IMG/VR virus record: IMGVR_UViG_2526164633_000022
Location: 1-63,168 of that record
Source of the DNA: a virus
Lineage: Duplodnaviria > Heunggongvirae > Uroviricota > Caudoviricetes
Strand: one strand, 5' to 3'
DNA: 63,168 nt
Below, piece after piece: positions 46,359 to 54,948 of this stretch. A program made the translations under genes and the position numbers. The notes beneath the pieces are model-generated. The model was not told the origin of the DNA. It did not search any database and was given only the letters and a program-made list of their open reading frames with translations. Each line of letters begins with the position of its first letter. Position 1 is the first letter of the stretch.

Positions 46359-46430
46359 TAGTTACAGTGTCACTTTTAATGCTGGTGGAGTGCGCCCACC
46401 AGCATTTTTTTCGTCCAATGAGGAGGGCAT

Positions 46431-46937
46431 TTGAGTATTTTCAATAAACACGCACGCCAGGAACGTCCGTATATCGTCATAGTCGATATTGATGGAACAA
46501 TATCAGAGGCAACTGAAGACAGACTGCATTTGCTTCCGCCACCAGGTAAAGGTGCATTAACAAAGGACTGGAACGAGTTTAATCTCGCCTGTGACACCGA
46601 TACTCCCATCACTCCGGTTATTGATATGGTGCGCCAGTTATTTAACGTTTACACGGTCTGGTTTGTAACCGGGCGCTGTGAGATCGCAAGGGATAAAACA
46701 CGAGCCTGGCTGCGGAAGTACGTAACAAACGGGGCTGAGCCTTTGCTATCTATGCGTCCTGCCACCGATGACAGAAATGACGGTCCAGCAAAGATTGATC
46801 TCCTGAAGAAAATTGGTCTAAGTAAAATTGCGTTCGCGCTGGAAGATAAGATTGAAGTGGCGCGTGTGTTCAGGAGTCACGGCGTACTTACATTCATGGT
46901 CAGGGAGTATGAAAATGCGCTTCTTCATCAACAATAA
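46431..46937 (+). CDS. HAD-superfamily phosphatase-like protein
   Basis: 168 aa; motif IVIVDIDGTIS. Confidence 0.55.
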   Translation: MSIFNKHARQERPYIVIVDIDGTISEATEDRLHLLPPPGKGALTKDWNEFNLACDTDTPITPVIDMVRQLFNVYTVWFVTGRCEIARDKTRAWLRKYVTNGAEPLLSMRPATDDRNDGPAKIDLLKKIGLSKIAFALEDKIEVARVFRSHGVLTFMVREYENALLHQQ

Positions 46938-46953
46938 TTGCTCTAATAAATCT
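46937..46953 (+). promoter_or_regulatory. C1 operator overlapping stop of HAD-like gene
   Basis: ATTGCTCTAATAAATCT. Confidence 0.65.
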
Positions 46954-47131
46954 TGATTTTTAAGGCAGGGGAAGTGAAAATAAAAACATGCCGCAAGGCG
47001 CGGCATGTATCCAATCAATCACAGGAGCTGAAAATATGAACACGGCATTCAAAATCATTATGGCCGCGATCTATTTCTGGCTGTTCTCTATCACTTTTGG
47101 CGGCATCGTCGCACATGGGTAAGGGGGATGC

Positions 47132-47860
47132 ATGAAAGGCGAAGTGAAAGAGCGCGGCATGATTTTCAACGATGAGATGGTCCGGGCCATCCTCGAAGGA
47201 AGGAAAACGCAGACGCGGCGGATAATGAAAAATCAGCCTGCGGAAGTCGGTCCAGAAGCACCAGTGATGGTTAGAAAAATTGGTGCAGGTTTTCAGTGGT
47301 ACGGGGCTGATGGTGTAAGCAGTGTTTTCAATTGCCCATTTGGTATCGTCGGCGATCGAATTTGGGTTCGTGAAACATGGGCGATATTAGGCAATGAGGA
47401 TGGTTGCAGTGTGGACTGGAACGACAACCTTTGTCGTGGCGATGAGAAGAACGCAGCAAGGATTTATCGGGCCAGTTGCGAGCAAAAACCTGGTGATTAC
47501 GGCTTATGGTCGATACCCGATGATGCCGACTGGAAACCTCACACTGTGAATGAAAAGTTTGATGGTGGGTGGCGTCCATCAATTCACATGCCGCGATGGG
47601 CATCACGCATTCTGTTGGAAATTACCAACGTGCGCGTTGAACGGTTGAACGATATCAGCGAATGCGATGCAAGGGCTGAGGGCGTTCCGCCTGCTGGAAG
47701 TTTGCTTCCTGATCACCCGGGAACATTCCTTACTCCCAAGGGGGATTTCGCAATGGCCAAGGTTGCGTTCCAGCGCCTGTGGGAATCCATCTATGGTGAA
47801 GAAAGCTGGAACGCTAATCCCTGGGTGTGGGTAATCGAGTTTAAGCGCATTCAGGAATAA
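47132..47860 (+). CDS. Conserved phage hypothetical protein
   Basis: 242 aa; N-terminal MIFNDEMVRAILEGRKTQTRR...GDRIWVRETW. Confidence 0.55.
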   Translation: MKGEVKERGMIFNDEMVRAILEGRKTQTRRIMKNQPAEVGPEAPVMVRKIGAGFQWYGADGVSSVFNCPFGIVGDRIWVRETWAILGNEDGCSVDWNDNLCRGDEKNAARIYRASCEQKPGDYGLWSIPDDADWKPHTVNEKFDGGWRPSIHMPRWASRILLEITNVRVERLNDISECDARAEGVPPAGSLLPDHPGTFLTPKGDFAMAKVAFQRLWESIYGEESWNANPWVWVIEFKRIQE

Positions 47861-47943
47861 ACCGTGAGTATGCATCAAATCGTCAGTTTTTCAGGTGGAC
47901 GAACATCGGCCTGTCTCGTTCATCTGTTCGAAGAGGTAGTGGC

Positions 47944-48147
47944 ATGACAATCGTAAAAACCCATACCGGCACCGTGATCACCAAAGACGGGCCGCAGGTA
48001 AAAAAACTGCACCAAACAGAGCGGATGTGGGTCGTCGGCAAAAATGAGTTTTACCACAAAGATACCGGACGCCGCCACTTTGCAGAAAATACGCGCCGTC
48101 GACTGCTGTTAGACACCATCAAGCCTATCGAGGTGAAGCATGTTTAA
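47944..48147 (+). CDS. Small hypothetical protein
   Basis: 67-aa ORF. Confidence 0.35.
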   Translation: MTIVKTHTGTVITKDGPQVKKLHQTERMWVVGKNEFYHKDTGRRHFAENTRRRLLLDTIKPIEVKHV

Positions 48148-48379
48148 ACAGAACGAAAAAGCTATCGCTCAAATTGCTGATTATATCCCGCGTGCGTGCC
48201 GGGGTATGCAGTTGCAGCAAGCCAAAGCGCGCCTGGAGAAAAAAATTGCGCTCTATATTGATGACGGCTGTGATGCTGCCGTTCTTAACGCGGCGTTCGC
48301 ACCAGCTCTTAACAGTCATACTCGGGAGTCTTTTTTTTCGTGCATCGAAGCGCAACTCCGCAAAGGAGGCAGCCAGTGA
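48140..48379 (+). CDS. Small hypothetical protein
   Basis: 79 aa; ends ...RKGGSQ, overlaps next GTG start. Confidence 0.35.
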   Translation: MFKQNEKAIAQIADYIPRACRGMQLQQAKARLEKKIALYIDDGCDAAVLNAAFAPALNSHTRESFFSCIEAQLRKGGSQ

Positions 48380-49077
48380 GCGAAATTAATTACCGGGCAC
48401 TGCGTGAGATAGCAAAACAGGCAACACAGGGCGAATGGGTCGCATTTATTTCGCCGGGTACTGGTACGTATGCGGTGCATACGCCCGGTGATAAACGATG
48501 TGAAGACGTTATCAAATGGACCGGCTTTGATGGACTGAAAAACGCAGAGAACAACGCTCGTTATATTGCCGCATTCAACCCAAAGGTTGCACTGGAGCTA
48601 CTTGGTGAAATTAAGCGCCTGGAGGACACAAATATTGATGCTATGTGCCGAATAGCACCGCTTGAGACTAAGCTCGCGGCTCTGGTGGCAGAGAACGCTG
48701 GGCTGAAACACGCAATGGCTGTAACTCTTGATCATGTGTCGGTCACGGATGCAGGGCAGGCCGGAGTTGCTGCAATGATTATCAACGATGCCCTACACCA
48801 CAGCGAAACTCCAGCTACCGATGCTTTTCTGGCTGAAATTCGTGCGGAAGCACGCAACGAGGGGATTAACTATACCGCCAGCCGTCTTGCTGCTGCGTTC
48901 AATCACGGATTTATCAATAAGTCTTTGCGTGAAGTTTTCGACGTTACGCGCATGATTCTGTCAGCGAAAGAAGAGTTGGCTAATGAACCGTACCCGATTG
49001 ATGGCCTGTCCGGTGAATATGCGGAGAAATCCCTTGAAGAATGGGCGGAACAGATTCGCAAAGGAGGCAACCAGTGA
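48376..49077 (+). CDS. Ea22/Ead-like protein, copy 1
   Basis: GTG start after AAAGGAGG; N-terminus VSEINYRALREIAKQATQGEW. Confidence 0.6.
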   Translation: MSEINYRALREIAKQATQGEWVAFISPGTGTYAVHTPGDKRCEDVIKWTGFDGLKNAENNARYIAAFNPKVALELLGEIKRLEDTNIDAMCRIAPLETKLAALVAENAGLKHAMAVTLDHVSVTDAGQAGVAAMIINDALHHSETPATDAFLAEIRAEARNEGINYTASRLAAAFNHGFINKSLREVFDVTRMILSAKEELANEPYPIDGLSGEYAEKSLEEWAEQIRKGGNQ

Positions 49078-49835
49078 GCAAGATTGACTATCAGGCACTG
49101 CGTGAGGCGGCAGAGAAGGCTACGAAAGGTAAGTGGGCTGTTGAATTCGACGATGAGATTTACTCCACTGACGGCATAAACCATGAGCAAATAGCTATGG
49201 TGTTCAGTGAAAACGAATCTCGTGATGCTGAATTCATCGCCGCAGCCAATCCGGCTACCGTCTTGGCGCTTCTGGATGAACGGGAAAGAAACCAGCAATA
49301 CATAAAACGCCGCGATCAGGAGAACGAGGATATTGCGCTAACGGTAGGGAAGCTGAGAGTTGAGCTTGAGGAAGTAAAACAACACGCTGAAGAATTATCC
49401 GAAACCAAGGCTGTTCGTAACCAATGGCGGCCAGATATTTGCCCAATAACCGGACGTGCATTTTTCATGTGGATTGAGCATCCAACATTGGGAAATGTGC
49501 CGACATATGGTGGCCCATTAGATAGTTACACCATTCCAACAAAGGACGGTGACGGTGAGTTTTCATGTGAGCGTTACGATCATGATTTTGGCGGTTGGGT
49601 AGAAAGCGAATGTCTTGGGTTATATCTGATTGATGATAGAGAACAATGCAGGGTCTACGAACTGGAGGAACGCGTTAAGGAACTGGATGCTCGGGAAATA
49701 TCGCTCCCGGAACGTAGCAGCATGCTTCATCGAACAGATTTTCACGATGATTACCAAACGGTAATGGCATACAAAGTTTCTGAAGTCATCGCTGCAATCC
49801 GCGCCGCAGGCATTCGCATCAAAGGAGGTGAGTAA
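49074..49835 (+). CDS. Ea22/Ead-like protein, copy 2
   Basis: GTG start after AAAGGAGG; N-terminus VSKIDYQALREAAEKATKGKW; divergent C-terminal domain. Confidence 0.6.
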   Translation: MSKIDYQALREAAEKATKGKWAVEFDDEIYSTDGINHEQIAMVFSENESRDAEFIAAANPATVLALLDERERNQQYIKRRDQENEDIALTVGKLRVELEEVKQHAEELSETKAVRNQWRPDICPITGRAFFMWIEHPTLGNVPTYGGPLDSYTIPTKDGDGEFSCERYDHDFGGWVESECLGLYLIDDREQCRVYELEERVKELDAREISLPERSSMLHRTDFHDDYQTVMAYKVSEVIAAIRAAGIRIKGGE

Positions 49836-50011
49836 TGCGTGTGGCATGTATCGGCTTGTTACCGTACCCGACTCGTTTTTGGGCTTCTGCGCTAATTGCA
49901 AAGCCGTATGTCCTGATGGCTGACAACATCATCCCGGCACCAAAGCGCCGCCATACCGGTATTGCAGCGGCACGACGAGCAGCAAAGAGACGCAGGAGAG
50001 CAAAGCGATGA
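49835..50011 (+). CDS. Small Arg-rich protein (58 aa)
   Basis: Own translation MRVACIGLLPYPTRFW...AARRAAKRRRRAKR; TAATG overlap upstream, ATGA downstream; below track cutoff. Confidence 0.35.
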   Translation: MRVACIGLLPYPTRFWASALIAKPYVLMADNIIPAPKRRHTGIAAARRAAKRRRRAKR

Positions 50012-50184
50012 AAAACCGTAAGGCAAAACGACTTTTTTTACAGCGACCTGTGCGTGTGGTGGAGCTGGTTATTAGCAACCATAAGATAGCGGTACTCCAT
50101 CCATTTGGTCAGGTGGCTTTTGCCGCAAAGCGTAAGCCTACTGCGTCACAGAACAGGCGGAAGAAAGGGTACGCTGTAAGATGA
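50008..50184 (+). CDS. Small basic protein (58 aa), paralogue of next ORF
   Basis: Own translation MKNRKAKRLFLQRPVRVVEL...; N-terminus shared with 50181 ORF; ATGA overlaps at both ends. Confidence 0.35.
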   Translation: MKNRKAKRLFLQRPVRVVELVISNHKIAVLHPFGQVAFAAKRKPTASQNRRKKGYAVR

Positions 50185-50369
50185 AAAATCGTAAAGCAAA
50201 GATTCTGTTAGTTCGTAGAAACGCTCCTGGCGTCTGGCAGTGGGTGAGACTCAGCAACCGACGGATGGGGTTGATGAAATATTACGGGATGATGGATTGT
50301 GGTTTTTGCAAAAAGCCCAGCGCGGCGCAAAACCGCTGGAAAAACCACTTGCGCACTAAAGGAGAGTGA
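50181..50369 (+). CDS. Small basic Cys-containing protein (62 aa)
   Basis: MKNRKAKILLVRR...; followed by AAAGGAGAGTGATATG junction. Confidence 0.4.
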   Translation: MKNRKAKILLVRRNAPGVWQWVRLSNRRMGLMKYYGMMDCGFCKKPSAAQNRWKNHLRTKGE

Positions 50370-50370
50370 T

Positions 50371-50886
50371 ATGGCGTTAACACACCGCGAACTCTGTCAG
50401 ATTGCGTATAAGTTCCTTAAGCGCAACGGGTTCAAGGTTTGTTTTCATGACCGCTTTATAGCTGTAACCAGTACCGGAGAACAGCCAGATGCTATGGGAT
50501 TCAGAAATTCAGCATCATGCCTGATAGAGGCGAAGTGTTCTCGTGCTGACTTGTTGGCAGATAGAAAAAAGCGTTTTCGTAAAAATCCATCTCTTGGAAT
50601 GGGCGACTGGCGATTCTTTATTAGTGAGCCGGGAATTATTTCAGTTGAGGATTTACCACCTGGCTGGGGATTACTTCACGTTGTTAACGGAAGAGTACGG
50701 AAAGTACATGGGTGGCCCAAGGGTAATTGCTGTTGGGGTAATCCTGACGATAAGCCATTTACTGGAAATAAGCAGGTTGAATGCGATTACATGTTATCTG
50801 CATTAAGGCGCATGGAGTTGAGAGGGCACCTTAATGAAATATATGACGGTGTAATTGTTAATAAGAAAGAAGGAAACGCGGCATGA
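50371..50886 (+). CDS. Putative PD-(D/E)xK-type nuclease-fold protein
   Basis: Start at MALTHREL after GGAGAG RBS; PDAMGF...CLIEAKCSRADL resembles D-(D/E)xK core; weak. Confidence 0.45.
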   Translation: MALTHRELCQIAYKFLKRNGFKVCFHDRFIAVTSTGEQPDAMGFRNSASCLIEAKCSRADLLADRKKRFRKNPSLGMGDWRFFISEPGIISVEDLPPGWGLLHVVNGRVRKVHGWPKGNCCWGNPDDKPFTGNKQVECDYMLSALRRMELRGHLNEIYDGVIVNKKEGNAA

Positions 50887-51278
50887 TCACTATTACCAAT
50901 AAGAAACAGTATCCCAGCGAGCAATATCTTAATGAGCTGATCACCAACATAGAGTTTGCTGCAAGGGCACCAGTTGAAGTCGTGAGAGCAATGGCAGCAG
51001 AGCTACAGAAGCGGCGCGAAGCTGATAGCGCAGAACCAGTTGCTTATATTTTCAAACATCCGGCCGGGAAATTATTCTGGGCTTTAACGGATGAAAGTAA
51101 TAAAGAGCAAGCGGACGTTATTCCTGTTTATGCCGCCCCTCCAGTGCCAGTAGTACCTGAAGAAAAACCAATGCCTAACCCTCTTAAAATGTACGCGGTC
51201 GATGCTGTTGCCGCTATTGCAGAGGTGAGAGGCTGGAATGCCTGCCGCGCCGCCATGCTTCAGGGTAAAGGAGAGTGA
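50883..51278 (+). CDS. Hypothetical protein sharing motif with DUF551-like gene
   Basis: 131 aa; PPVPVVPEE and WNACRAAMLQ also present in 51991..52887. Confidence 0.5.
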   Translation: MITITNKKQYPSEQYLNELITNIEFAARAPVEVVRAMAAELQKRREADSAEPVAYIFKHPAGKLFWALTDESNKEQADVIPVYAAPPVPVVPEEKPMPNPLKMYAVDAVAAIAEVRGWNACRAAMLQGKGE

Positions 51279-51279
51279 T

Positions 51280-51495
51280 ATGGCTATTGCCGCAAGTTAC
51301 ACCATGCATCTCTATTGTGACTGCCGCCAGTGTACGGAAGGTGTATATCCAGTGCCAGACTTCGGTGAGTATATCGGTACGTCATGGGCTGGCTGTGCAA
51401 AAGAGGCACGTAAAGATGGGTGGCGAATAAGCGTCGACAAAACGCGTGCTTTTGCGCCAGGGCATAAAATTTTGAGAAGCAACAAAGGAGAGTGA
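51280..51495 (+). CDS. Small Cys-rich protein
   Basis: MAIAASYTMHLYCDCRQC...; preceded by AAAGGAGAGTGATATG. Confidence 0.45.
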   Translation: MAIAASYTMHLYCDCRQCTEGVYPVPDFGEYIGTSWAGCAKEARKDGWRISVDKTRAFAPGHKILRSNKGE

Positions 51496-51496
51496 T

Positions 51497-51715
51497 GTGC
51501 CTACATTATTCAGAAAAGAATATCCGCGAAAAAGTAGAGCGACAGAACTTTTGTTTCTCATTCTGTTTATCGTGTTGATGATACCGATATCCCCGCTAAT
51601 TTTTGTCTGGGCAATCGGGAAAATAATTGAACCAGTTATTGAATTGTATAACGACGTGGTATGGGCGTCGTTCAACACACTGCACAATAAAATTAATCCG
51701 TATAAGGAAAACTGA
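51497..51715 (+). CDS. Small membrane protein
   Basis: GTG start after AAAGGAGAGTGAT; hydrophobic LLFLILFIVLMIPISPLIFVWAIG. Confidence 0.4.
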   Translation: MPTLFRKEYPRKSRATELLFLILFIVLMIPISPLIFVWAIGKIIEPVIELYNDVVWASFNTLHNKINPYKEN

Positions 51716-51716
51716 T

Positions 51717-51980
51717 ATGGCAACTTTGACAAAAAAAGAACGGGCATGGTTGAACGAATTACAGGAAGTTCTTGATCGCTGTCCATCACCGAAAAAAATT
51801 GGCTTTTACACCATTGGCGATAAAAGCATTTACCTGTATGACCTACGCCGCATGGATGAAATCATGGAGGCTCTTGATAATCGTTCGTCGATGGATTGGT
51901 GTGTTGCTGTTCATGATATGAATGCAGGGTTTGATGAAAAGATTTTGTTCCCCTCATCAGTTGAAAGCACTGCGGGTTAA
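51717..51980 (+). CDS. Small hypothetical protein
   Basis: Start at MATLTKKERAW (track ORF 51627..51980). Confidence 0.45.
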   Translation: MATLTKKERAWLNELQEVLDRCPSPKKIGFYTIGDKSIYLYDLRRMDEIMEALDNRSSMDWCVAVHDMNAGFDEKILFPSSVESTAG

Positions 51981-51990
51981 GGAGTAACAC

Positions 51991-52887
51991 ATGACCACTA
52001 TTACCAAAGAACGTATTGAATTGTTCATTAAAAATCCGCTTGAAAACGGGCTTACCCGTGGTGAACAAATGGAACTGGCACGGATTGCGCTGGCATCGCT
52101 GGAAGCAGATCCAGTTAAACGAGTTAACTCAGATCAGATGCGCCGAGTCTGCTTAGAAGCTAATCGCCATTTAGATAAATATGACGCGATGGCGAAAGAG
52201 GTAAATAAGTTGCTTGGACGCATCGCCCCGCCAGCGCCGGTAGTGCCGGAAGAAGCAACTCCGGAAAACGTAGAAATGCTCTCTGGCTATGTTTCCACGT
52301 ACAAATTAACCGATAGCGAGCGCGATATTGCTGCCGAAATATGGAACGCCTGCCGCACCGCCATGCTTCAGTCCGGAAACTTTCGGGAAAGCAAGAATTC
52401 GTCAACCAATAATTTTCGGGAAATCGCGGAAACGTCAACCAACTATCCGGTAATTCCTAGTGAGGTGTTGTCCGCAATCTTGAAGGTTGCCAAGATTCGT
52501 GCCGATTTCGATGATTTTGACGGTGACAGGCGAGGTATCGGTGATTGTCTGGATGAGGCTGAGCAAGAGCTTTTCGTTACCATTAACAAATATGCCAGTC
52601 AGTTGGCAGCAGAACCTATAGCGCCTAATGACGTTCGAGAGCAGACAGCCATTCCGCAAGTTCCGGTAACTCCGGATGGTTGGATAAGCTGTAGTGAGCG
52701 AATGCCGGATAGCAAAACAGCCGTTCTTGTTGCCAGGGAGTTTGATAGGAAAGGTGACTGGCGAATGAAATGGGCGACTTACATACCGGGGTATCCTGAC
52801 GCTAATGATGGTTGGATAATTCCTGGTGCGTCGTGGAAACCGTCACACTGGATGCCGCTACCAGAACCGCCGCAGGAGGCGAAATGA
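51991..52887 (+). CDS. Protein with C-terminal DUF551-like domain
   Basis: 298 aa; C-terminus DGWISCSERMPDSKTAVLVA...WKPSHWMPLPEPP. Confidence 0.55.
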   Translation: MTTITKERIELFIKNPLENGLTRGEQMELARIALASLEADPVKRVNSDQMRRVCLEANRHLDKYDAMAKEVNKLLGRIAPPAPVVPEEATPENVEMLSGYVSTYKLTDSERDIAAEIWNACRTAMLQSGNFRESKNSSTNNFREIAETSTNYPVIPSEVLSAILKVAKIRADFDDFDGDRRGIGDCLDEAEQELFVTINKYASQLAAEPIAPNDVREQTAIPQVPVTPDGWISCSERMPDSKTAVLVAREFDRKGDWRMKWATYIPGYPDANDGWIIPGASWKPSHWMPLPEPPQEAK

Positions 52888-53144
52888 TGAATGTAAAAGA
52901 GAAGGTTTTGCAGGTGATGCGTTCCCGGGCTGCCCTGCAAGATAAAGCTCTCGGCGGGGAATATCCATTCAGGATGGCAACCTGGAATCTGCGGTTGGCA
53001 ATGGAGAAGGAATTTCCTGATGAAGAATGGCGTTCGGCAGATTTGCGCAAAATTCTTATGGAGATGGCTAAAGACGGAACAGTATCCAAAGATACCCATG
53101 CCAGCCGGATTGGTCAGGCGGTATGGAGACTGGAGGTGAGATAA
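52884..53144 (+). CDS. Small hypothetical protein
   Basis: Start MMNVKEK, ATGA overlap with upstream stop. Confidence 0.45.
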   Translation: MMNVKEKVLQVMRSRAALQDKALGGEYPFRMATWNLRLAMEKEFPDEEWRSADLRKILMEMAKDGTVSKDTHASRIGQAVWRLEVR

Positions 53145-53211
53145 TGAGCTGGCCTGAAGCATTCGCAACGGTAGGAATTGTGATGGCGGCAGCACTGGGT
53201 TTGTATTCAAT

Positions 53212-53463
53212 TTGTCGCTGGTGGTAACGATGGGAAAAATAACTTTTGTAGTCGAATTTGAGGATGGCAAAGAGCCACCTGTTAGCGCCAATCTTGATGT
53301 TGCTGGTGGCAGGCTTGTTTCGGTTCTATTTGGTGACTACCGAGATGATTTCTTCCAACCAGAAGAAGTTGATGTGGTGCGAGAGGCATTAAACGAGTTA
53401 AGTGTTGATAACGATGATGCTCATGCGGAAATCATCCAAAAAATGGAACTGCTAACTCACTAA
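53212..53463 (+). CDS. Small acidic hypothetical protein
   Basis: 83-aa ORF. Confidence 0.4.
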   Translation: MSLVVTMGKITFVVEFEDGKEPPVSANLDVAGGRLVSVLFGDYRDDFFQPEEVDVVREALNELSVDNDDAHAEIIQKMELLTH

Positions 53464-53638
53464 ATTATCAATTATGGTGCTATCACCTACGACACCGAGA
53501 GAAAATTTATAATGTCAAAAGTAAATGTTTTGATTTTTTCAGCAATTGTTGGCTTTGGTTTTACTGCCGGAGTGCAGATTTATATTACGTGGGAAAAAAT
53601 CATCAACTACGCATGGAGTTGTTTTATTAAGTGAGGTA

Positions 53639-53935
53639 GGTATGTGGAGAGGTAATAGTCATGGCAAAAGCCAGATGATACTTACCGAATATCAGTTTGA
53701 CCATAAAACCAATAAATCACGTTCAGTATATTTGCTTCGGCACAATAGCCGCGTAAGGAATACCGTGCTGGAGCAAAATCTGACTGTTGAAATGGATAAT
53801 TACGGGGGCTTCAAGCCAACAATTTCGCTTGATGATTTTCCTCGTGGTTTAAGCGAAAGAGAAGCAATGCTGAAATTAGCAGAATGGCTACAAAGATTAA
53901 GCATTGCTATTGAAGATAACTGGTCTGAACCTTAA
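53639..53935 (+). CDS. Small hypothetical protein
   Basis: Start at MWRGNSHG after GAGGTAGG RBS (track ORF 53546..53935). Confidence 0.4.
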   Translation, partial: GMWRGNSHGKSQMILTEYQFDHKTNKSRSVYLLRHNSRVRNTVLEQNLTVEMDNYGGFKPTISLDDFPRGLSEREAMLKLAEWLQRLSIAIEDNWSEP

Positions 53936-53941
53936 ATTTAT

Positions 53942-54316
53942 ATGATGACACTAAAACATTTTCTTGACCGCCCATTATGGGCGGCAGCCGCAGGCTATGA
54001 CTTTAATTATATGGATTGCATGTCTTATACCGCCAATGCATACGACCATTCCTTCAGTCTGCTGTTTAATTCTTTAAGAATATTGCCGCAAACAGAAGTT
54101 GGAGAGCTTCATTTATGGCTATTGGGCTTTATCGCGGCTGGAGTTGGTATTGCTGTATGGCCTTTTATTTTCTGGTTGGTGGCTGTTGTAGTGTGGTTTA
54201 AGTGCAAGACGTACCGGAAAAAGTATTTCTTAGGTGATGGAATGACTGATATTGCCAAAATGAACATTGAAAAATGGACTAAGGAATGTGAAAAGAAATG
54301 GCGCAAAAAGAAATGA
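53942..54316 (+). CDS. Small membrane protein
   Basis: 124 aa; hydrophobic LWLLGFIAAGVGIAVWPFIFWLVAVVVWF; Lys-rich tail. Confidence 0.45.
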   Translation: MMTLKHFLDRPLWAAAAGYDFNYMDCMSYTANAYDHSFSLLFNSLRILPQTEVGELHLWLLGFIAAGVGIAVWPFIFWLVAVVVWFKCKTYRKKYFLGDGMTDIAKMNIEKWTKECEKKWRKKK

Positions 54317-54948
54317 CCAGAATCACTGAAGAGCGCATATCAGAGATTATTTCCCGTATCGAAATGTATGGTCACGGTGCTGGATATACGGCAGATGAAG
54401 TATTGGAAATAGCCCAGCAGATGCTGGCCTTGAGACAAAAAGAGCAACATGAAAGTAATACGTGTAGATTGAATTTTGAGCATTGGCTGGAACAGCAACG
54501 CGGGAAAATCGATGTGGACTGTGGTTGTGTGTCCACTGAAACATTCATGCACTGGCTGCGGGTAGCTTACGAGGCTGGCAACTATCCGGATATTCCGGAT
54601 AGTTCGGTGCCAGCACCAGGAAAGGGCGTCACCGGTGAACGTATCCGAATTAAGCCGCATGTTTATCGCGAACTGGTTAACCGTCTCCACGATACAGCGA
54701 TCAAGTGTGCTGGCACCCAGCAATTACGAGAAAGAATTAGCCGTGTTTTGGGCGACGTTATTACACCAGATCATCATAAACAAGCCGAGAAAAGTGGCCT
54801 GGAAAGGTGTCGCCTTGAGGCGGCATTAAACATTAAGCCGGGGCATACGCTTGGCATTATTGATGCACTATTGGTTCATAAGATGGCCAGGGCTTTATTG
54901 CCGCTGGTGGCTGAAAAGCATGAGGTGGACCATGCCAACGAAAGCTGA
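54298..54948 (+). CDS. Hypothetical protein
   Basis: 216-aa ORF. Confidence 0.5.
   Translation: MAQKEMTRITEERISEIISRIEMYGHGAGYTADEVLEIAQQMLALRQKEQHESNTCRLNFEHWLEQQRGKIDVDCGCVSTETFMHWLRVAYEAGNYPDIPDSSVPAPGKGVTGERIRIKPHVYRELVNRLHDTAIKCAGTQQLRERISRVLGDVITPDHHKQAEKSGLERCRLEAALNIKPGHTLGIIDALLVHKMARALLPLVAEKHEVDHANES

Follow-up and report, generated by a model that had tools for sequence, protein, structure and literature searches.

How is an array of small accessory genes assembled and reassembled in a phage-plasmid, and do the short sequences that recur at its gene junctions take part? The question is raised by positions 48140-51720 of the IMG/VR virus record IMGVR_UViG_2526164633_000022, a chain of closely packed small genes whose modular, duplicated architecture, according to an earlier note made from the letters alone, looked like a shuffling hotspot. 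The whole stretch that was analysed, 63,168 nucleotides (nt) long, is referred to as the window; the C1 operator and the genes and linkers described below between 47132 and 53144 lie on its plus strand. Comparison with relatives shows an array that turns over quickly and is common to lambdoid, P22-like and P1-like elements. The conserved sequences at its junctions, hereafter linkers, are portable and share common descent; crossovers occur at them preferentially, though not exclusively.

The window comes from a P1-like phage-plasmid. The flanks of the array are 97-98% identical to P1, P7, RCS47 and SJ46 (for P1 itself, 97.3% over window positions 46400-47826 and 95.1% over 54567-54913); this identity, together with the P1 and P7 annotation, bears out the label "P1-like" used in the earlier note. 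The region corresponds to the C1-repressed early operon, with pap and the C1 operator Op88 upstream and pmgU/pmgV sequence downstream. The operator, ATTGCTCTAATAAATCT (the Op88/OpmgT equivalent, positions 46937-46953), can be read directly and marks the start of the repressible operon; its position matches that of an annotated operator in P1 (6938-6954 of our P1 locus, L001) and that of Op(hea) in P7. Eight regions of P1-like phage-plasmids have been reported to vary strongly, and the pmgT-pmgV interval is one of them (PMC9603915). The window has the flanks of this variable region 8, and gene content varies as well, nine P1-like relatives all differing from one another. P1 has three genes in the interval, P7 seven and the window at least 14 (47.1-53.1 kilobases, kb). 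In lambdoid prophages (loci L008 and L009) the same genes sit between exo/erf and int, in what is called the "ea/exo-xis" region. The region is best described as an accessory-gene cassette array of the C1-repressed early operon (the "hea" operon in P7), with genes from a pool that it shares with the early-left "ea / exo-xis" region of lambdoid and P22-like prophages. GC content is unremarkable across the region (0.45-0.50), and no surplus of promoter-like or terminator-like sites was found within it.

Direct comparison supports the proposal of a hotspot. Three collections were searched (50,697 phage records, 72,556 plasmids and 5,426 complete E. coli genomes), and no record in them covers 80% or more of the region. 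Pieces of it occur in 482 phage records, in 741 plasmids and in 3,228 of the 5,426 E. coli genomes (about 60%), which carry them at a median of 2 places and a maximum of 12. The comparison across relatives that had been suggested as a check yielded a presence/absence matrix in which 11 of 11 differ in cassette complement; the region is not invariant. Some segments are 95-98% identical between P1-like plasmids and Shiga toxin (Stx) or chromosomal prophages. With the clustering of breakpoints described below, these findings leave very little doubt that the stretch is both P1-like and a site of shuffling.

The window itself is a recent recombinant, judging from its closest matches. Positions 46400-49084 are 99.1% identical to pTHO-010-4, mismatch-free over the last ~77 nt shown, and positions 49264-54416 are 99.7% identical to pFDAARGOS_1289. 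The ~180 nt between the two matches make up an Ea22 N-terminal module present in only 26 genomes. On the left, the match to pTHO-010-4 continues to ...GATTCGCAAAGGAG and stops at 49066, on AAAGGAG; one of the two latest crossovers of the window falls exactly on a linker.

AAAGGAG-type linkers occupy seven junctions of the array. They are 16-21 nt long and combine a strong Shine-Dalgarno sequence, the upstream stop codon in the spacer and the downstream start codon. The 63-kb window has seven AAAGGAG sites on the plus strand, six of which are junctions between genes of one 3.2-kb stretch. Type A is found twice, as CAAAGGAGGCAGCCAGTGAGC (48361-48381; Shine-Dalgarno sequence, upstream TGA and GTG start) and as CAAAGGAGGCAACCAGTGAGC (49059-49079), where the left crossover of the window lies. 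A single type C linker, AAAGGAGGTGAGTAATG (49820-49837), has a TAATG stop/start overlap. Type B, in which AAGGAG stands 6 nt before the start, is represented by AAAGGAGAGTGATATG at 50358-50373, by a second copy at 51267-51282, by a third with a GTG start at 51484-51499, and by a degenerate copy, TAAGGAAAACTGATATG, at 51703-51719 (79% identity to the reference copy). The junction AAAGGAGAGTGAT(A/G)TG singled out in the earlier note does recur three times, the last with GTG, against 0.04 matches expected by chance; its copies begin at 50358, 51267 and 51484 rather than at 50356, 51266 and 51485 as first given. The 21-mer CAAAGGAGGCARCCAGTGAGC at the Ea22 starts occurs twice, with 0.00 occurrences expected. 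The recurring ends of upstream reading frames, which had also caught attention, are the translations of the linkers; in addition to ...KGGSQ, ...KGGNQ and, three times, ...KGE, there is one ...KGGE. Self-comparison of the region, another check put forward at the outset, confirmed the duplicated modules and disclosed additional ones.

The portability of the linkers is best seen in type B. At least 120 contigs of IMG/VR contain the exact 16-mer of this type. Combined with the loci collected earlier and the window, and counting occurrences with full flanks, these gave at least 133 occurrences of AAAGGAGAGTGATATG between at least 42 left and at least 36 right flank clusters, in at least 75 combinations; both adjoining frames are open in 118 of the 133. 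In this census the gene for a 171-amino-acid (aa) protein has at least 10 different left neighbours and the gene for an 87-aa protein at least 12. Across 36 distinct left and 28 distinct right bodies, information content reaches background ~20 nt before the 16-mer and ~5 nt after it. Upstream, the ~20 conserved nt define sub-families: cgcgccgctggcattcgcatcAAAGGAGAGTGATATGgc gives the protein tail ...RAAGIRIKGE, cgcgccgccgcagccggtAAAGG... gives ...RAAAAGKGE, and ...tgccgcgccgccatgcttcagggtAAAGG... gives ...WNACRAAMLQGKGE, each directly before the stop codon. In more than 10 unrelated bodies the tail contains the codons GGC ATT CGC ATC with almost no variation, and synonymous positions are near-frozen. 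Type A (ttcgccgcccagcttcgcAAAGGAGGCAACCAGTGAGC; linker end …AAAGGAGGCAACCAGTGAGC), counted in loci not selected for it, occurs 50 times, behind 18 unrelated left bodies that end in ...FAAQLRKGGNQ and a stop. With their frozen flanking codons the linkers extend over ~30-40 nt in type B and further in type A, because the latter runs into the conserved 5′ end of Ea22. A 39-nt form of type B is present in 176 phage records, including lambda, P27, BP-4795, 2851, P7, SJ46 and the Salmonella phages SE22 and SF11. Short conserved sequences thus separate non-homologous genes, and the same linker is found with different neighbours.

In lambda, ea22 ends (at 1500-1530 of locus L132) in ...MMSDAGIRIKGE and a stop on the left half of a type B linker (aaaggagagtga). 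No coupled start codon follows, the next ~190 nt being non-coding. This orphan half-linker suggests the trace of an old deletion.

Breakpoints were mapped by BLAST of the 47.1-53.2 kb interval against 131 loci, which gave 440 events at 89 distinct sites. For 34% of the distinct sites (48% of events) a gene end is no more than 20 nt away, where 11% would be expected (p=1.3e-8). As 120 of the loci, those from IMG/VR, had been ascertained through the type B motif, so that counts at type B junctions are inflated, the test was repeated on 11 relatives selected by similarity. In these, the seven linker cores (±8 nt) hold 20-22% of the breakpoints, about 5-fold more than the 3.9% expected (p=1.7e-4), and the first type A copy alone accounts for eight events. 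Breakpoints therefore coincide with linkers, though most of them lie elsewhere. Individual indels tell a similar story. P7 lacks positions 49832-50351, and its single linker aligns to window positions 49814-49831 as well as 50352-50369; in two other relatives (L006 and L007) a deletion of 50028-50179 is bounded by the 21-nt repeat that encodes the peptide MKNRKAK.

We consider it likely that these observations reflect portable linkers that provide both translational coupling and short-homology recombination, with illegitimate joints besides. At the mRNA level, a linker would load ribosomes by termination-reinitiation onto any cassette placed behind it. At the DNA level, linkers would act as portable patches of homology, as would short boxes within the multi-domain Ea22- and DUF551-type genes. 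Recombination at such patches, probably by annealases of the Red, RecT or Erf type from lambdoid prophages in the same cell and, on the longer patches, probably by host RecA, would swap, delete and duplicate cassettes across lambdoid, P22-like and P1-like elements. Substrates should be available within one cell, because many genomes carry several copies of the segments. Illegitimate joining must also contribute, as the step by which a new gene body acquires its first linker. Taken separately, a causal role of the linkers in recombination is a reading that we favour only by a small measure.

Besides the ascertainment of the IMG/VR loci, a number of points weigh against this account. Junctions without linkers are also enriched for breakpoints in the 11 relatives (15% against 4.4% expected, p=0.0085), an enrichment that selection against broken genes would yield by itself. 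About two-thirds of the breakpoints lie inside genes, repeatedly at short conserved boxes, for which reason the linkers are not the main crossover sites. Such boxes include, in Ea22, VLALLDE (49257-49265) and the coiled coil (49369-49390) and, in other genes, MITIT (50892-50899), ARIALASLEA (52104-52116) and WNACR (52342-52370); among the 131 loci, 27 events fall at 50892-50899, and another 26 at 51713, in the degenerate type B linker. The core common to all type B junctions measures only 16-19 nt, short for efficient Red or RecA action, the minimum homology for Red-beta being ~30 bp (PMC3945230). Furthermore, exchange at linkers explains re-assortment and not how unrelated bodies gained a linker in the first place, hence the need for illegitimate joining, and illegitimate joints do exist nearby (the P1 pmgT deletion joint and the remnant of a phosphoadenosine phosphosulfate (PAPS) reductase gene, both described below). 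Lastly, we infer the coupling and the recombination enzymes alike.

Some of these points speak for another account, in which cassettes are joined by illegitimate recombination followed by selection for intact genes, the linkers being kept only as translation signals with no role in recombination. That is the prevailing general model of phage mosaicism (PMC3233612); it accommodates the illegitimate joints and the breakpoints at linker-less junctions, and the linker core is indeed a textbook Shine-Dalgarno sequence with 6-nt spacing. Yet a Shine-Dalgarno sequence needs ~6 nt, and 30-40 nt are conserved here, including synonymous sites in the tails of unrelated proteins. Other genes of the same P1-like genome do without the motif, with one other plus-strand AAAGGAG in 63 kb. 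Crossovers that end exactly on the core, and indels bounded by pairs of linkers or of repeats, also speak for exchange at homology, and we find it unlikely that the linkers are translation signals alone. Far less probable still is that the linker serves as an mRNA operator for a translational repressor or processing enzyme, or that the shared tails are peptide tags such as degrons. Identical sequences over many ribosome-binding sites of one operon, and shared C-terminal peptides (...AGIRIKGE, ...LRKGGNQ) on unrelated proteins, might be read in this way. Against it, the linkers have no significant RNA structure (fold z-scores between -1.7 and +1.4), and comparison of 46-56 kb with Rfam, taken to E values of 1, produced just two sub-threshold chance matches, both outside the region. 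The frozen synonymous sites point to DNA identity by descent rather than to selection on the peptide, and the lambda half-linker has survived with no gene behind it.

A comparable doubt attaches to the products of three basic microgenes that follow the Ea22-like genes: m1 (58 aa, 26% Arg+Lys, phrog_13831; 49835-50011), m2 (58 aa, phrog_1380; 50008-50184), which is present or absent among relatives, and m3 (62 aa, phrog_1380/12350; 50181-50369). As the earlier note had observed, all are rich in Arg and Lys (26-28%), m1/m2 and m2/m3 are joined by ATGA overlaps, and m2 and m3 begin with MKNRKAK; the latter two are paralogues (37% identity, E=5e-10, both in phrog_1380). These genes could be translational relays leading from Ea22 to the 171-aa gene, or non-coding filler, rather than sources of functional proteins. 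Variable sites among close variants have no third-codon-position bias (3/2/4 over the three positions in m1 and 12/13/16 in m3), two family members (P0054 and P0060) pass through the middle of m3 in an alternative frame before returning to the original one, and one copy (in L004) has a stop codon. The family is limited to Escherichia and Salmonella, P7 and phage Lyz12581Vzw lack the block, and m2 is unannotated in every compared RefSeq relative that contains it, a gap being left between m1 and m3. Opposed to this are ratios of non-synonymous to synonymous substitution rates (dN/dS) that, between diverged homologues, amount to 0.36-0.44 in the m3 family and to 0.18-0.32 in m1, the in-frame indels by which homologues with 57-71% identity hold their frame, an interior SN(R/H) box (positions ~25-28) kept in most MKNRKAK members, and the inclusion of all three genes in PHROG families, of unknown function. 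In balance, the microgenes are probably translated but weakly constrained; that they encode nothing functional strikes us as quite improbable. The m2 frame is intact in 10 of 10 full-length copies and, as said, has a paralogue in m3 and a PHROG match.

The ends of the microgenes differ from their middles. The MKNRKAK family comprises ~60 clusters among 5.8 billion proteins, all named ones from the two genera just mentioned. The family alignment has a hypervariable middle between two invariant stretches, MKNRKAK and ...QNR.K... (…AAQNRWKNHLRTKGE in nearly all members). Synonymous changes in codons of conserved residues are rare at the ends (7/123) compared to the middle (43/108), with an odds ratio of 11 and p=2e-10, pairs not being independent. 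Self-comparison places the 21-nt repeat at both MKNRKAK starts. Chimeras are on record with Ea22 N-termini (P0001, P0049) and with DUF4014 (P0035). From this pattern we conclude that the ends behave as handles at the DNA level. Locus L047 (7275-7642) has a chimeric MKNRKAK gene with the body of m3 and the tail of m2 (...QNRRKKGYAVR), followed by a third, diverged paralogue, which indicates that copy number and make-up vary by unequal exchange at the shared end boxes.

Mosaicism is also apparent in the two Ea22-like genes that precede the microgenes, gene a (233 aa; 48376-49077) and gene b (253 aa; 49074-49835). As proposed from the letters, each starts with GTG (at 48376 and 49074) after CAAAGGAGGCA(G/A)CCA; the GTG overlaps the upstream TGA. 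Both match the Pfam family Ead_Ea22 (PF13935), with 93 and 108.9 bits against a cutoff of 27; the match begins at model position 1, which supports the GTG starts, and the boundaries of gene a are annotated identically in relatives. The claim that the two proteins share their N-termini (VSEINYRALREIAKQ / VSKIDYQALREAAEK) and differ in their C-terminal domains held up: they are 29% identical over residues 1-116 and unrelated thereafter. Gene b is a chimera of a rare N-terminal module (49085-49263) and a widespread C-terminal module that begins at the VLALLDE box (~49264), where breakpoints recur. In the window these genes do not lie between exo and xis of a lambdoid pL operon, the location found in L008 and L009. 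The mosaic build of Ea22, with a shared N-terminus and unrelated C-terminal domains, has been published (PMC10834534), and Ea22 has been described as pro-lysogenic in lambda and Stx phages (PMC10834534, PMC7093339).

The array is a well-documented kind of locus, an instance of lambdoid "ea/exo-xis" cassette mosaicism and of the boundary-sequence model, and not a new system. Conserved boundary or linker sequences are said to go back, within the modular theory of phage evolution, to Susskind and Botstein in 1978 and to Clark et al. in 2001 (HK620). As in that model, short conserved sequences stand here between non-homologous genes, with varied neighbours and with breakpoints on the linker. The lambdoid exo-xis or P22 ea region (pL operon: ea22, ea8.5, orf60a/61/63, ead, eaa) draws on the same pool, with Ea22-like, eaa-like, DUF551 and 171-aa genes; it has the same linkers, the 39-nt form being found at the 3′ end of lambda ea22, in Stx phages and in P22-like phages; and it is likewise early and repressor-controlled, with the same mosaic build of Ea22 (PMC10834534). 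The array of the window differs in that it resides in a P1-like plasmid prophage, under C1/Op88 instead of CI/pL control, and adjoins neither exo/bet nor int/xis, whereas lambda retains only its orphan half-linker with non-coding DNA behind. Variable region 8, the P7 "hea" operon (upf86.8-upf90.8), occupies the same position, and in P7 an Ea22-like gene, the 171-aa gene and a DUF551 gene are joined by the same linker as in the window. In contrast, the cassette combination of the window has no match of 80% or greater coverage in the three collections, and reference P1 has none of its cassettes.

Some likeness to an integron cassette array is evident, in that small, promoter-less, mobile reading frames run in one direction behind one upstream promoter and vary in content. 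An integron-like mechanism was nevertheless rejected. No integrase (intI) domain was detected among the reading frames of 46.4-55.2 kb or in annotated P1-like relatives, and no attC-like inverted repeats or hairpins were found between cassettes; exchange here appears to rest on general short-homology recombination. Prophage Pas small RNAs (bioRxiv 10.64898/2026.05.13.724894), also considered, are unrelated, being located beside structural genes. The epsilon34 genome paper does not discuss the ea region.

The P1-like variable region, the lambdoid ea/exo-xis region, the mosaicism of Ea22 and the boundary-sequence model (PMC3233612) were all known before. New, as far as we have checked, are the census of two linkers with their frozen synonymous sites and DNA-level conservation, their reach from lambda to P1-like plasmids, and the structure of the MKNRKAK microgenes, with conserved ends and a variable middle; these exact linkers may have been described before. 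An earlier small survey found no recent exchange between lambda-like and P1-P2-Mu groups (PMC3945230), whereas at this locus the 95-98% identities document recent gene flow between lambdoid prophages and P1-like phage-plasmids. The locus also bears on two long-standing models of mosaicism, targeted homologous exchange at boundary sequences versus random illegitimate joining and selection. With its pair of exactly defined, very widespread linkers, and with natural recombinants to hand, it allows both to be tested by recoding a sequence of 16-40 nt.

A bolder possibility, which we hold to be rather doubtful, is that the linkers and the frozen 5′ and 3′ handles of the cassettes constitute a selected, standardised plug-and-play adaptor. 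Such an adaptor would supply a ribosome-binding site, stop/start coupling and a homology arm of 30-40 nt. With its help, phage annealases (Red, RecT, Erf) would carry accessory genes that lack promoters among unrelated temperate families (lambdoid, P22-like and P1-like), so that it would be a functional counterpart of the integron without an integrase. The price for the proteins would be a "tail tax" (...AGIRIKGE, ...LRKGGNQ), and Ea22 could acquire stand-alone cassettes as C-terminal domains.

Of the individual cassettes, the 171-aa gene (50371-50886; upf89.0 of P7) is the most widespread, being present in 35 of the 131 loci. Its homologues are ~60-99% identical across Enterobacterales, among the matches listed, and residues D40, E53 and K55 are invariant. 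The structure model is a confident one (predicted local distance difference test, pLDDT, 84.7; predicted template modelling score, pTM, 0.79) and would place a D...(D/E)xK motif on a restriction-endonuclease-like fold, so that the protein is a predicted PD-(D/E)xK nuclease. In three Salmonella proteins (P0151, P0153 and P0163) the domain is fused behind an Ea22 N-terminus, which means that stand-alone cassette and Ea22 C-terminal domain are interconvertible. Sequence search of the PDB gave nothing meaningful for this protein or for the products of the two Ea22-like genes. In RefSeq relatives the first 179 nt of the gene are called a "frameshifted" pseudogene and the remainder is uncalled or split (L003 5108-5623, L011 5816-6331). 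The flag is an annotation artefact, apparently a systematic one; the L003 frame is intact and identical to that of the window. The family phrog_9263 (230 aa) merges m3 with the 171-aa gene. An RF2-type programmed +1 frameshift at GAG-UGA-U was rejected as its source on sequence grounds, because the tRNA on GAG cannot re-pair in the +1 frame; fused or mis-called open reading frames explain this profile better.

The chain as a whole has 12 successive spacings of -8, -4, -4, -1, -4, -4, +1, -4, +1, +1, +1 and +10 nt, the first 11 falling between -8 and +1. Overlaps and gaps of at most 1 nt, with the Shine-Dalgarno sequence inside the upstream gene, are the geometry of a translationally coupled operon, and they argue for coupling along the chain. 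The first gene of the operon (242 aa, phrog_874; 47132-47860) is homologous over its first 231 codons to reference P1 pmgT. It is followed by a 25-codon in-frame remnant of the PAPS-reductase gene, MHQIVSFSGGRTSACLVHLFEEVVA and a stop (47870-47947), recognised by comparison with the intact 290-aa gene of L011. The gene is also intact in L010, the copy in the window having undergone an internal deletion; the remnant retains start, frame, stop and the ATGA overlap to the next gene, as if the translational chain mattered. Next come a 67-aa cassette gene (phrog_1226; 47944-48147) with a clear third-codon-position bias (variable sites 5/2/16) and a 79-aa gene (phrog_1344; 48140-48379) with the tail ...LRKGGSQ, which leads into the first type A linker.

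Downstream of the 171-aa gene, a 131-aa cassette gene (50883-51278) carries a MITIT start box and a WNACRAAMLQ tail box. The 71-aa gene that follows (phrog_926; 51280-51495) has type B linkers on both sides, and its contexts vary in relatives; in L007 it is found at 5728-5950, upstream of other genes. A 72-aa DUF4014 gene of membrane type, with a GTG start (51497-51715; Pfam PF13198, 90 bits), and the 87-aa gene (phrog_1714; 51717-51980), which has at least 12 different left neighbours in other phages, come next. Beyond the reported interval the chain runs on through a 298-aa gene (51991-52887), made of a MTTIT...WNACRTAMLQ module, an 11-aa tandem repeat and a DUF551 domain, to an 86-aa eaa-like gene with an ATGA overlap (52884-53144; "eaa protein" in relatives). 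In the self-comparison the 131-aa and 298-aa genes share the MITIT/MTTIT start and the WNACRxAMLQ box at the same spacing. The repeat of the 298-aa gene, a 33-nt tandem unit at 52378-52442 with copies 78% identical, encodes NFRESKNSSTN / NFREIAETSTN; the WNACRTAMLQ box precedes it and the DUF551 domain follows. Most of the early accessory proteins encoded by the cassettes have no assigned function. PADLOC recognised no defence system for 10 proteins, and NCBIfam returned no match.

At the same position in P1 (7133-8202 of L001), pmgT links the initial 231 codons of the 242-aa gene, out of frame, with sequence from the middle of a 216-aa gene, which in the window lies at 54298-54948, and pmgU consists of the C-terminal 111 codons of that 216-aa gene; homology to the window covers 47132-47826 and 54567-54948. 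Canonical P1 has therefore lost the whole array by a ~6.7-kb deletion, whose joint shows no more than 1-2 nt of microhomology. On this comparison, P1 pmgT and pmgU are deletion artefacts and not native genes. Annotation would profit in three respects: the origin of these two genes, the missed m2, and the intact nuclease-fold gene flagged as "frameshifted" in most compared RefSeq relatives.

Upstream of the array, a GC-rich hairpin (46986-47008) lies between the C1 operator and the first gene. A very hydrophobic reading frame of 28 codons (MNTAFKIIMAAIYFWLFSITFGGIVAHG and a stop; 47036-47122) has an AGGAG of its own, and a 44-aa version of it is annotated in one relative. The window holds 31 Chi sites, with 1.7 expected. 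The array coincides with the largest Chi gap (46404-53216, 6.8 kb) and was considered as a Chi-free island; the gap is not significant, another of 6.3 kb lying elsewhere and ~0.45 of this size being expected. Chi is present in both orientations in the terminator-like hairpin that follows pmgS (46378-46406).

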